Shown: one piece after another, positions 15,838 to 22,049 of the stretch
Numbering within the stretch: the stretch's first letter is position 1
Layout of the letters: every line of letters starts with the position of its first letter
DNA from: Duganella rhizosphaerae
GTDB taxonomy: Bacteria > Pseudomonadota > Gammaproteobacteria > Burkholderiales > Burkholderiaceae_D
DNA: 24,000 nt
NCBI GenBank assembly: GCA_040364205.1
Contig: BPWK01000021.1
Direction: 5' to 3' (one strand)
The notes under the pieces: generated by a model
What the model saw: the letters and a program-made list of their open reading frames with translations, nothing else
Databases searched by the model: none
What the model was told of the DNA's origin: nothing
Program-made: the position numbers and the translations under genes

Positions 15838-17634
15838 CTAGGCCTGGGCCATGCGGTGGCTGACCGGCAGCGTCACGCGGAAGGTGCTGCCCCGGCCCGG
15901 CGTGCTCTGCACGTCGATGCGGCCGTAGTGGTTTTGCACGATGCCATAGGAGAGCGACAGCCCCAGCCCCGTGCCCTTGCCGATCGGCCGGGTGGTGTAG
16001 AAGGGGTCGAAGATGCGCGGCAGCGCTTCGGCGGCGATGCCGCCGCCGGTGTCGCTGACTTCCAGCCAGACCTCGGCGCCGGCGCTGCCGCAGCGCACGG
16101 TGATGTGGCCGCGTTCGGGGCCGATGGCCTGGGCGGCGTTTTGCAGCAGGTGCAGGAACACCTGGTTCAGCTGCGACGGCATGCATTCGATTTCCAGCAT
16201 CGGGCCGAACTCGGTCCGGATGTCGGCCACCGCTTCCAGCTCGCCGCCGATCAGGTTGAGCGTCGATTGCAGGCCGGTGCGCAGGTCGGCCCACTCCCAG
16301 TCCTGGGTGGCTTCCACGCGCGAGAACTGTTTCAGGTCCTGCACGATCTTGCCGACCCGATCCATGCCGCCGCGCGACTCGGCCACCAGCGCCGGAATGT
16401 CTTGCTTCAGGTAGGCCAGGTCGACCCGGCTGCGGGAGTGCGCCACCGCCTCGCGCGGGGCGCCGTCGTGCTCGGCTTGCTCGTAGGCGTTCAGCAGCTC
16501 GAACAGCTTGTCCAGGTAGTCCTCCAGCGTGCCGAAGTTGGACGCCAGGAAGGCCAGCGGGTTGTTGATCTCGTGCGCCACGCCGGCCGCCAGCTGGCCG
16601 ATCGAGGCCAGCTTTTCCGACTGCACCAGCCGGCTTTGCAGGGCCTTGCGTTCGGCCATCTCCTGCTGCAGGCGCTGGTTCGCTTGCAGCAACTCGGCGG
16701 TGCGTTCCTGCACCCGGCCTTCGAGGTGGTCGTTGGCGGTCTGCAGTTCGGCGTTGACGCGCTGGACCGTGGCGTGGCTGCGCAGCAGCCGCAGCGCGGT
16801 GTAGGCCAGCAGTCCGACCAGCAGCCCGGCCAGCAGCATCAGCCCGTAGCGGTAGGCGTGCAGGCGCTGCATCGCCAGCTGCTGTTGCTGGCCCAGCAGG
16901 GCGCTGATGGCGTCGATGCGCTCGTCGGTGGGGGCCGCCGCAATGCCGGTCAGCAGCCGGTCGACCGCGACCTGTTCAGCCAGCACGGTGCGCGCGTGCG
17001 CGCTCATGGTGTCGATGCGCTCGGCCAGCTCGCCGGACAGGCCGGCGCGCGCGGCCGCCAGGGCGGCCAGCTCCCGTTCGACCTCGGCGACGCCGTTCTC
17101 GGAAGGACCGTCGGTGTAGATCAGCAAGGCCAGCAGCAGGCGGTGGGCGGCCGCCTCCGCATGGCCCATCGCCTCCAGCCGGTGGCCGCGCTGCTGGTTG
17201 GCCGACACGCCGATGTCGTCGGCGGCGACGGGCAGGAAGTCCAGCGAATTGTGCAGCACCGCGTTGTGCGACTTGAACGCCTCCATCAGCGCCGCCTTCG
17301 CGCTCAGCGTCTGCTGGTAGGCGTCCAGCGCGGCGGCCAGCTGCGGCGACGATGCCTCGATCTGCAAGGGCAGCTCGTGCATGGCCGCCAGCGGATGGGC
17401 CAGCGCGTCGTAGCTGGGGTTCAGGCCGATGCGCGATTTCATCGCGTCGAGTTCCCATTGCGCGTCGAGCTGGGCGACTTGGCGCAGCAGCGCGACGTTG
17501 GCGAAGTAGTCGTTGCTGTCATAGCTGAGGCTGCGCGCGTAGATCGCTCCCAGCAGGACGGCCAGCAGCAGGCAGGCCAGCGGCAGCCGGTACAGGCGCA
17601 GCCGTTGTCGCCACCACCGGCGGAGCGCGTTCAT
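15838..17634 (-). CDS. Membrane sensor histidine kinase with a large (about 265 aa) helical periplasmic domain
   Basis: The true start is MNALRRWW at 17634, forming an ATGA overlap with the peroxidase stop. TM1 is LPLACLLLAVLLGAIYA and TM2 is YGLMLLAGLLVGLLAYTALRLL. A coiled coil follows, then H-box GVAHEINNPLAF, N-box LLQNAAQA, G1 DTGGGI and G2 GKGTGLGLS. The periplasmic part is A/L/Q/E-rich and may be a double all-helical (DAHL-type) domain, which is unverified. Confidence 0.88.
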   Translation of the reverse strand: MNALRRWWRQRLRLYRLPLACLLLAVLLGAIYARSLSYDSNDYFANVALLRQVAQLDAQWELDAMKSRIGLNPSYDALAHPLAAMHELPLQIEASSPQLAAALDAYQQTLSAKAALMEAFKSHNAVLHNSLDFLPVAADDIGVSANQQRGHRLEAMGHAEAAAHRLLLALLIYTDGPSENGVAEVERELAALAAARAGLSGELAERIDTMSAHARTVLAEQVAVDRLLTGIAAAPTDERIDAISALLGQQQQLAMQRLHAYRYGLMLLAGLLVGLLAYTALRLLRSHATVQRVNAELQTANDHLEGRVQERTAELLQANQRLQQEMAERKALQSRLVQSEKLASIGQLAAGVAHEINNPLAFLASNFGTLEDYLDKLFELLNAYEQAEHDGAPREAVAHSRSRVDLAYLKQDIPALVAESRGGMDRVGKIVQDLKQFSRVEATQDWEWADLRTGLQSTLNLIGGELEAVADIRTEFGPMLEIECMPSQLNQVFLHLLQNAAQAIGPERGHITVRCGSAGAEVWLEVSDTGGGIAAEALPRIFDPFYTTRPIGKGTGLGLSLSYGIVQNHYGRIDVQSTPGRGSTFRVTLPVSHRMAQA

Positions 17635-18593
17635 GGCTGCCCCGCCGGTGTGCTGTTGAGCGTATTGAGGAACTGGATGATGTCGGCCTTGTCCTGCCGG
17701 CTGCCGCTGCGCCCCAGCTGGAACTTGAACATGACGTCGATCGCGTCCTCCAGCGTGGCGGCCGAGCCGTCGTGGAAATACGGGGCGCTGCGCGTCACGT
17801 TGCGCAGGCTGGGCACCTTGAACACGTGCAGGTCGTCGGGATTGTGGGTGACGGCGTAGCGGCCGCGGTCGGCCTCGTTGGCGCCGCCGCGCTGGGCGAA
17901 GTAGTCGCCCATGACGCCGAATTTCTGGAACATATTGCCGCCGACGTTGACGCCCTGGTGGCAGGCGGCGCAGCCGAAGCGCTTGAACTTGGCGTAGCCG
18001 GCCTGTTCCGCCGCCGTGATGGCGTTGCGGTCGCCGCGCAGGTACTGGTCGAAGCGGGCGTTGGGGGTGATCAGCGTGCGTTCGTAGCTGACGATGGCGT
18101 GGCGCAGGTTGGCGATGGTCAGGCCGTCGCGGTAGGCTTGCGCGAAGCCGTCGCGGTAGGCGGCGTCGCCGGCCAGCCTGGCCAGCACGCTCTCCCACGA
18201 CGATCCCATCTCGACCGGATTGCGGATCACCATGTCGAGCTGGGCTTCCAGCGTGTCGGCGCGGCCGTCCCAGAATTGCTTGAAGTTGAGCGCGGCGTTG
18301 AGCACGGTGGGCGCGTTGACGGCGCCCGGCTTGCCCAGGAAGCCGAGCGATTTGGCCCGCTGGTCGGCGCCGCCGCGCGCGACGTTGTGGCAGCTGCTGC
18401 AGGAGACGCTGCTGTTGCCCGACAGCCGGACGTCGTTGAACAGGCGCCGGCCCAGCGCGGCCTTGGCCGGGTCCTGGTGCAAGCTCAGCGGCACCGGCGA
18501 GATCGGCTCGCTGGCCGGCAGGGCCGGCGCGGCGGCCAGGCCGGTTGCCAGGCACAGCAGGGCGAGGCGGGGGGAAGTGGTGAAGCCACGCAT
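17631..18593 (-). CDS. Periplasmic di-haem cytochrome c peroxidase (CCP/MauG family)
   Basis: Signal peptide is LALLCLATGLAAAPALPA. It has two CXXCH motifs (CSSCH, CAACH), the inter-haem Trp motif QFWDGRA, NPVEM, LRN..APYFHDG, and DVMFKFQLG carrying the likely Met ligand. The Shine-Dalgarno is GGAGAA. Confidence 0.9.
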   Translation of the reverse strand: MRGFTTSPRLALLCLATGLAAAPALPASEPISPVPLSLHQDPAKAALGRRLFNDVRLSGNSSVSCSSCHNVARGGADQRAKSLGFLGKPGAVNAPTVLNAALNFKQFWDGRADTLEAQLDMVIRNPVEMGSSWESVLARLAGDAAYRDGFAQAYRDGLTIANLRHAIVSYERTLITPNARFDQYLRGDRNAITAAEQAGYAKFKRFGCAACHQGVNVGGNMFQKFGVMGDYFAQRGGANEADRGRYAVTHNPDDLHVFKVPSLRNVTRSAPYFHDGSAATLEDAIDVMFKFQLGRSGSRQDKADIIQFLNTLNSTPAGQP

Positions 18594-21648: not shown

Positions 21649-22049
21649 GGACGTGGGCCTCCGGTGAAGGACGCCGCCGCCTGGCCGCAGGCCAGGCTGA
21701 TGGTGTCCAGTAACAGTTGATCGTTGACGGGCTTGCTCAGATAGGCCAGCGGCAGGTGCTGTTGCGCCTGCGCCTGTTCGGCCGGGCTGGGCTGGCCGGT
21801 GAGGATGATGACGCCCACCTCGGGCGCCCGCGCGGCCAGCCTGGCCTGCACCTCCAGCCCGGACAGGCCAGGCATGTGCACGTCCAGCACCACGCAGCAG
21901 GGGCGGCCGCCGTCCAGCGCGACCAGGAAGTCGGCGCCGCCGGCGTAGGCCTGGGCCGGGATGCCGGCCGAGCGCAGCAGGCGCAGCAGCGCGCGCCGTA
22001 TCGCGTCGTCGTCGTCTACTACAGCCACCCAGGGAAGTGAGGTATCCAT
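21645..22049 (-). CDS. Stand-alone receiver (REC-only) response regulator
   Basis: I prefer the ATG at 22049 (MDTSLPWVAVVDDDD) to the TTG at 22100. It has the acidic pocket DDDD, the phospho-acceptor in VVLDVHMPG, then ILTG and SKP. There is no output domain. Confidence 0.8.
   Translation of the reverse strand: MDTSLPWVAVVDDDDAIRRALLRLLRSAGIPAQAYAGGADFLVALDGGRPCCVVLDVHMPGLSGLEVQARLAARAPEVGVIILTGQPSPAEQAQAQQHLPLAYLSKPVNDQLLLDTISLACGQAAASFTGGPRP

Follow-up and report, generated by a model that had tools for sequence, protein, structure and literature searches.

The closest described relative of the system treated here comes from Campylobacter jejuni, where docA (Cj0020c), coding for a homologue of cytochrome c peroxidase (CCP), lies immediately upstream of Cj0019c, whose product DocB is also named Tlp10 (PMC3156733). 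Both docA and docB are needed for chick colonization, and DocA makes no contribution to resistance against hydrogen peroxide (H2O2) (PMC3156733). According to a paper of July 2026 the two genes overlap and are translationally coupled, and an interaction of DocA with Tlp10/DocB was suggested there, 'perhaps to signal peroxide availability' (PMC13462783). The DAHL domain was defined on Tlp10, as stated in PMC9796306, which cites Elgamoudi 2021. Here we report the analysis of a 24,000-nucleotide stretch of DNA from Duganella rhizosphaerae (contig BPWK01000021.1; this whole stretch is called the window), in which the gene of a secreted dihaem peroxidase overlaps that of a membrane histidine kinase with a periplasmic DAHL domain.

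A first-pass annotation of the window had described a five-gene operon and proposed that the peroxidase acts as a co-sensor of the membrane kinase in a cyclic di-GMP (c-di-GMP) circuit. Comparative genomics gives strong backing to the pairing of peroxidase and DAHL sensor, whereas the five-gene operon is not the conserved unit. What is conserved is a two-gene module, a peroxidase of the bacterial cytochrome c peroxidase (bCCP) type followed by a DAHL membrane sensor. From the sequences compared below we consider it rather probable that the peroxidase serves as detector and DAHL as its transmembrane reader, and that in the window this pair is wired to a c-di-GMP circuit.

Conservation of the peroxidase-DAHL pair

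The five genes of the window are the following.

21645-22049, minus strand: single-domain receiver (REC) protein of 134 aa (Pfam Response_reg 6e-19)
19492-21648, minus strand: REC-GGDEF-EAL-REC response regulator (Pfam Response_reg twice, GGDEF and EAL)
18612-19490, minus strand: soluble histidine kinase of 292 aa without a sensor domain (Pfam HisKA and HATPase_c)
17631-18593, minus strand: secreted dihaem cytochrome c peroxidase of bCCP type, 320 aa (Pfam CCP_MauG 4e-57)
15838-17634, minus strand: membrane histidine kinase of 598 aa, with the order first transmembrane segment (TM1)-DAHL-TM2-HisKA-HATPase_c (Pfam DAHL 3.5e-47)

Reading of the open reading frames (ORFs) and junctions confirms all five minus-strand genes and their spacing as first annotated, and Pfam confirms their domain content. 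An ATGA overlap (21648-21645) joins the REC stop to the start of the REC-GGDEF-EAL-REC gene. The stop TGA of the latter (19494-19492) is followed, after one base, by the ATG of the soluble kinase at 19490. An 18-nt gap, gcgcccctGGAGAAcccc, containing GGAGAA, precedes the peroxidase ATG at 18593, and a second ATGA overlap (17634-17631) joins the peroxidase stop to the start of the membrane kinase.

Neighbourhood look-ups for three homologues reveal that the loci of Pseudomonas sp. 2FE and Polaromonas sp. A23 share with the window only the peroxidase and the downstream DAHL-sensor gene. When one genome of each species was scanned with the aligned peroxidase subfamily as query, relatives of the peroxidase turned up in at least 594 species-level genomes. 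Analysis was restricted to the 80 best loci (54-93% identity), in which downstream DAHL domains were called by phmmer over all six-frame ORFs. Conservation of the peroxidase-kinase adjacency had been set beforehand as a test by which the co-sensor proposal could be refuted; all 80 genome-scan loci and all five look-up loci (85/85) have a DAHL-domain ORF on the same strand immediately after the peroxidase. The reverse scan was run over metagenome contigs with a 24-sequence DAHL alignment and gave 79 loci with enough upstream sequence, in 78 of which the peroxidase is directly upstream of DAHL. A word-indexed protein search with the DAHL region, either as single sequence or as 24-sequence profile, returned 4-5 matches, Ala/Leu-rich words being suspected of swamping the candidates. 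Loci with the pair cover Beta- and Gammaproteobacteria and a metagenome-assembled genome of Bryobacterales.

The two genes are closely packed in nearly all of these loci. Across 163 pairs, the candidate start nearest to the peroxidase stop is found at -4 nt in 107, at -1 nt in 18 and at +2 nt in 23; it overlaps the stop by 4 or 1 nt in 125 of them, and in nearly all it is no more than 11 nt away. The outputs fused to DAHL include a histidine kinase (HK), HK-REC, an HK with an Hpt-like region, and GGDEF-EAL. The association with c-di-GMP genes recurs as well, GGDEF/EAL genes being present in the flanks of 61 of the 80 genome loci. The five-gene layout of the window is confined to Oxalobacteraceae. 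The c-di-GMP architectures near the pair in Pseudomonas are REC-PAS-GGDEF-EAL, REC-GGDEF-EAL and REC-HD_5. The common locus of the Pseudomonas fluorescens group contains REC-HD_5 (opposite strand), REC-PAS-GGDEF-EAL, REC-GGDEF-EAL, peroxidase, DAHL-HK and REC-HK.

The sole exception (locus L164) has a DAHL-GGDEF-EAL gene preceded by a different c-type cytochrome, of SoxA/TsdA type with Cytochrom_C. Given as stop-to-stop ORFs, which overlap, the two genes of this locus are as follows.

3886-4926, plus strand: cytochrome ORF
4632-7217, plus strand: DAHL-GGDEF-EAL ORF

Here the haem partner seems to have been replaced by a non-orthologous protein. We favour a detector role of the peroxidase because the linkage is bidirectional, conserved in order and independent of the output, and because of this cytochrome swap.

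Two of the loci deserve mention for their surroundings. Just upstream of the pair in Pseudomonas sp. 2FE (7745-9696 of that locus), a 73-aa CCP_MauG fragment is followed by a kinase with a Tll0287-like domain (a c-type haem PAS-like fold), and this arrangement may represent a second, decayed haem-linked sensor pair. In Polaromonas sp. A23 the pair, here with a hybrid kinase, is placed amid redox genes, namely three of the AhpC/TSA-redoxin type and those for cytochrome c', cytochrome b, DsbD and thioredoxin-like proteins. This neighbourhood gives anecdotal support to an oxidant or redox role.

Residues of the peroxidase and fold of the DAHL domain

The peroxidase matches Pfam CCP_MauG at 4e-57 (cut-off 25.6 bits), and its translation has a hydrophobic, signal-like sequence at the N-terminus. 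Its assignment to the CCP/MauG family stands; within this family, comparison with the PDB places it with the bCCPs and not with MauG. In a phmmer search of the PDB, bCCPs were matched at 5e-75 to 2e-57 and MauG at about 1e-26. Homology extends over the full length of the canonical bCCPs (N. europaea 1iqc, S. oneidensis CcpA 3o5c, G. sulfurreducens MacA 4aal, and 9qdt) with E values of 5e-75 to 1e-64. The positions of main importance in the gene are these.

18387-18401 and 17958-17972, minus strand: the two CXXCH motifs (from sequence)
18339-18341, minus strand: F85, at the distal-His position (alignment to solved bCCPs)
17730-17732, minus strand: M288, at the position of the high-potential haem ligand (alignment to solved bCCPs)

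A residue census was made over 159 distinct DAHL-linked peroxidases. Like the canonical bCCPs, these proteins keep both CXXCH motifs (CSSCH, CAACH), the bridging, inter-haem W108, the catalytic Q118 and E128, and the Met ligand M288, all of which are universal, and the Ca-site N93, present in 150 of 159. In solved bCCPs the counterpart of M288 is the Met of the segment 'ETMGRIQL' or 'KIMGSAQL', which we take to be the ligand of the high-potential haem. The nearby column 291 is occupied by Tyr in 122 and by Phe in 35 of the 159, the columns being placed by bCCP alignment; variation of this kind would speak against a His/Tyr-ligated six-coordinate haem as in MauG and MbnH. Unlike canonical bCCPs, the subfamily is genetically locked to a DAHL sensor and has lost the distal His, whose position holds Phe (109), Leu (26), Ile (7), Val (5), Met (4) or Ala (3) in 154 of the 159 homologues. 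The canonical distal-His loop 'SIGH.W' reads 'S.GF.G' in the DAHL-linked subfamily. Among the aligned solved structures only 9qdt is likewise without the distal His, having Val there. The protein in this entry, the closest of the solved structures, is annotated as 'Probable cytochrome c peroxidase'; it has 417 aa, some 120 of which form an extension at the N-terminus, and may be a quinol-peroxidase-type enzyme.

The distal His of a canonical bCCP ligates the peroxidatic haem at rest and must swing out on reductive activation. Because this ligand is replaced by Phe, the peroxidatic haem of the present protein would be permanently open. The residue pattern thus points to a complete peroxidase with a constitutively open, ligand-binding low-potential haem, a trait that would suit a detector.

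The DAHL domain (PF19443) matches with 161.4 bits against a cut-off of 38 and occupies residues 39-262 of the kinase, between the two transmembrane segments.

About 16849-17520, minus strand: periplasmic DAHL domain (Pfam PF19443)

It diverges fast (24-58% identity), with the exception of the core motif E-x-FKSHNAVLRNS-x-x-FLP-x-A and a few invariant residues, one of which is a His. The AlphaFold model (pLDDT 85.5) is all-helical and forms an elongated assembly of seven helices. Foldseek returned as nearest solved folds the periplasmic region of PilJ, the HBM domain of McpS and the sensor domain of TorS. The TorS matches 3i9y, 3i9w and 3o1h (the last a TorS-TorT complex) have probabilities of about 1.0, TM-scores of 0.42-0.57 and 9-12% identity, and no sequence homology of the DAHL domain to TorS was detected. 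Searching the PDB with a profile built from the DAHL alignment yielded nothing meaningful and no solved DAHL structure.

Several points weigh against a detector role of the peroxidase. As the seeds of both scans were motifs from this clade, DAHL domains outside it may have no partner. Adjacency, moreover, shows functional linkage and not which of the two proteins is the input. The full catalytic set is retained in the subfamily, and the peroxidase may therefore simply be an enzyme. Lastly, the DAHL domain of Tlp10 is reported (Elgamoudi 2021, as cited in PMC9796306) to bind several small-molecule chemoeffectors directly, without DocA.

The last two points favour an explanation in which the protein, an ordinary enzyme of periplasmic H2O2 detoxification or respiration, is only co-expressed, as cargo or output, with a DAHL domain sensing small ligands of its own. 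The closest solved structures are active peroxidases, and the CCPs of C. jejuni have been proposed to use H2O2 as an electron acceptor (PMC13462783), both of which agree with such an enzyme. However, co-regulation does not explain a near one-to-one, order-conserved and overlapping pair in about 160 loci. The pair also persists with GGDEF-EAL or chemoreceptor outputs, neither of which directly regulates transcription, and the other cytochrome in the partner slot of L164 would be left unexplained. Furthermore, the C. jejuni phenotype, in which docA is dispensable for H2O2 resistance yet as necessary for colonization as docB (PMC3156733), speaks against a detoxifying enzyme. On balance we regard a co-expressed enzyme as unlikely.

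The best NCBIfam matches of the peroxidase are the models of MbnH (178 bits, cut-off 362.85) and MauG (162 bits, cut-off 443.85), both below threshold. An identity as MauG or MbnH, which these matches suggested, was rejected on the PDB comparison together with the ligand census. A related possibility is that the peroxidase works in a MauG/MbnH-like manner and drives, with H2O2, the oxidation of a DAHL residue (candidates are the conserved W60, Y74 and H213 of the kinase), either maturing the domain or marking it reversibly. MauG and MbnH enzymes are known to act on proteins encoded beside them, as would be the case here. A low-potential haem without distal His, as in constitutively open enzymes, and the invariant or near-invariant aromatic and His residues of the DAHL clade would also fit. 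Nevertheless, we hold such a modification to be quite improbable, as the NCBIfam scores are far below their cut-offs and similarity to bCCPs is far stronger (1e-75 against 1e-26). The bis-Fe(IV) chemistry of MauG involves a Tyr ligand, whereas the second haem here has the universal, bCCP-type M288.

A third alternative concerns the stimulus. The peroxidase might report the redox state of the periplasmic electron-transport chain and not peroxide, the cytochrome c pool reducing the high-potential haem and DAHL reading the resulting conformational change, in which case the pair would be a sensor of respiratory or oxygen status. Canonical bCCPs undergo large loop rearrangements once the high-potential haem is reduced, which supports the idea, as do the use of a different electron-transfer cytochrome in L164 and the position of the Polaromonas pair amid AhpC/TSA, cytochrome c', DsbD and thioredoxin-like genes. 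However, the subfamily as a whole lacks the distal-His ligand on which the classical redox switch depends, and we give this alternative little credence. It is also a variant of the detector model, with the same architecture and a difference in stimulus alone, which sequence cannot separate. All three alternatives are less consistent than a detector role with the linkage pattern and with the cytochrome substitution in L164.

Kinases, phosphodiesterase and limits of the cluster

The soluble kinase (18612-19490) and the transmitter core of the DAHL kinase (15838-16700) share 49% identity over 265 aa, which suggests that the two arose by duplication. The soluble kinase probably shares receivers with the DAHL kinase or heterodimerizes with it. 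Pseudomonas loci carry REC-HK directly after the DAHL kinase instead of a sensor-less soluble kinase.

The EAL domain of the REC-GGDEF-EAL-REC protein (Pfam 3.5e-75) is intact, as the first-pass annotation had claimed, with the catalytic motifs EALLRW, EVTES, DDFGTGYSS, EGVE and QGY all present in the translation. Its GGDEF domain is degenerate (GNDEF). The Duganella orthologues have GNDEF too, and also DDFGTGYSS and EGVE, and the protein is likely to be a c-di-GMP phosphodiesterase. In NCBIfam the receivers show similarity, below threshold, to NosR-type REC phosphodiesterases.

The limits first given to the operon are too narrow, as further genes of the same strand flank it on both sides.

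22721-24000, minus strand: PAS histidine kinase, 5' end cut by the window edge (Pfam PAS_3, HisKA, HATPase_c)
22110-22724, minus strand: FixJ/LuxR-type response regulator, REC and GerE helix-turn-helix (Pfam Response_reg 8e-28, GerE 2e-18)
22050-22109, minus strand: 60-nt gap between the FixJ-type regulator and the REC gene, holding TTGGCCCAAGGTCCAATA (from sequence)
15805-15832, minus strand: promoter-like site GTGACA-16-TATAAT before the PAS-GGDEF gene (11/12 consensus match)
14755-15744, minus strand: PAS-GGDEF diguanylate cyclase, GGEEF intact (Pfam GGDEF 1.6e-49, PAS_4)

Absence of a DNA-binding domain, and EAL as the only enzymatic output, are accordingly true within the five genes but not for their surroundings, with the FixJ/LuxR regulator upstream and the PAS-GGDEF cyclase downstream. 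The stop of the PAS-HK gene overlaps the start of the FixJ-type regulator as ATGA. In the 60-nt gap that follows, a terminator scan found no terminator-like site, and there is no Shine-Dalgarno sequence before the REC ATG. The element TTGGCCCAAGGTCCAATA at 22083-22100 (minus strand) is kept in Duganella and Massilia loci while the flanking intergenic sequence diverges, and the REC ATG lies 7 nt past a TATTGT-like hexamer. The region of TTGGCCCAAGGTCCAATA and TATTGT could be an internal promoter, an operator or a leaderless start.

The cyclase gene begins 93 nt downstream of the DAHL kinase. The GTGACA-16-TATAAT site in front of it was the sole strong promoter-like site in a scan of 14600-24000, and its TATAAT is kept in Duganella loci. 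Because the PAS-GGDEF gene has this promoter-like site of its own, it may form a separate transcription unit. Three direct GTCACTAC repeats with 11-bp spacing are present at 15769-15798 (minus strand), between TATAAT and the cyclase ATG. They were considered as a regulator site and rejected, being found only in the window and in its closest relative (two copies) and absent from the other Duganella loci.

The eight-gene layout, from the PAS-HK through the PAS-GGDEF gene, is syntenic in Duganella and largely so in Massilia. Synteny of the FixJ/LuxR regulator with the cluster was seen in loci L001-3, L006-8 and L057, and in L001, a Duganella locus, the orthologue of the PAS kinase at the window edge is a dCache-PAS-HK. 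The window is about 95% identical in nucleotides to a contig of Duganella sp. BJB476 and is G+C-rich (about 60-73% per kb). Its remaining part, 17-13821, looks like ordinary metabolism, with glycine-cleavage P-protein subunits, an NAD-kinase-like gene, a TonB-dependent receptor, a YgjK/MGH1-like glycosidase, an amino-acid permease and a family-2 beta-galactosidase, and contains long spurious antisense ORFs of the kind typical for DNA of high G+C content.

The proposed sensor and its relation to known systems

Under the detector model, a peroxidase with a permanently open peroxidatic haem would be made together with the DAHL membrane sensor and would probably dock onto the elongated DAHL domain. 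The state of the haem protein, whether H2O2 turnover, a bound ligand such as nitric oxide (NO) or the redox state of the electron-accepting haem, would then shift the conformation of DAHL, and the activity of the fused transmitter, whichever it is, would follow from this conformation. The logic would be that of TorT acting on the TorS sensor domain. In the window, the DAHL kinase and its sensor-less paralogue would phosphorylate nearby receivers, that is, the single REC protein, the two REC domains of the GNDEF/EAL phosphodiesterase and possibly the FixJ/LuxR regulator. As a result, the oxidant or redox state of the periplasm would be coupled to breakdown of c-di-GMP and perhaps to transcription. 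The analysis demonstrates how the genes are built and which domains they encode, that the pair is conserved and tightly coupled, which residues are kept and to what fold class DAHL belongs; from this evidence we infer the docking, the identity of the signal and the routes of phosphotransfer.

A broader proposal is that in this clade DAHL serves specifically as a docking receptor for c-type haem proteins of the periplasm, and that the pair represents a widespread, unrecognized family of peroxide or redox sensors, which would also explain the DocA phenotype through Tlp10. We put this forward tentatively, the chances being slightly below even. If true, the family would plug into kinases, c-di-GMP enzymes and chemoreceptors alike, and the use of a peroxidase as the detector of a transmembrane receptor would give two-component, c-di-GMP and chemotaxis signalling a new input logic. 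To our knowledge, few routes are established by which bacteria sense periplasmic, as distinct from cytoplasmic, peroxide or redox state. At least about 600 species (counted by peroxidase relatives, with DAHL adjacency checked in the best 80) would carry the module, among them plant-associated Pseudomonas, Comamonas and Duganella. It would further explain why DocA, which does not protect against H2O2, is essential for gut colonization by C. jejuni. The pair is also compact, consisting of two genes whose soluble domains are likely to be expressible.

Among known systems, DocA-DocB/Tlp10 resembles the present pair in having a CCP-family gene immediately upstream of, and overlapping, the gene of a DAHL transmembrane receptor. 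It differs from the window in its chemoreceptor output, which lacks a kinase/c-di-GMP circuit, and the interaction there is only suggested. This likeness is drawn from published descriptions; DocA and Tlp10 may belong to the present peroxidase and DAHL clade, with, for example, the distal His lost.

TorT-TorS, which senses TMAO, and LuxP-LuxQ provide a second comparison, since in both a periplasmic partner is encoded beside a kinase whose elongated helical periplasmic domain reads it. For a helical periplasmic domain whose input is a partner protein and not a small molecule, TorS is the standard textbook example. The resemblance of the DAHL model to the sensor domain of TorS is one of fold class only, and the partner here is a dihaem peroxidase, unlike TorT, which is a periplasmic binding protein.

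In H-NOX/HnoK and NosP/NahK, a separate haem protein is likewise encoded next to a histidine kinase, from which phosphate passes to c-di-GMP enzymes with REC domains. H-NOX and NosP sensors are cytoplasmic and hold b-type haem in H-NOX or FIST-type folds. A Pfam scan found no H-NOX or NosP (FIST) domain in any protein of the cluster. Unlike those sensors, the haem protein of the window is predicted to be a periplasmic, c-type, catalytically complete peroxidase that would be read across the membrane through DAHL.

The first-pass annotation had considered such an arrangement, to its knowledge, uncharacterized. In our literature searches, too, no paper came up in which the peroxidase-DAHL pair is treated as a general module or is linked to kinases and c-di-GMP, although the 2026 paper does speculate that DocA signals peroxide (PMC13462783). 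The prior art thus consists of partner-protein sensors, haem-sensor circuits and a one-sentence speculation on Campylobacter.

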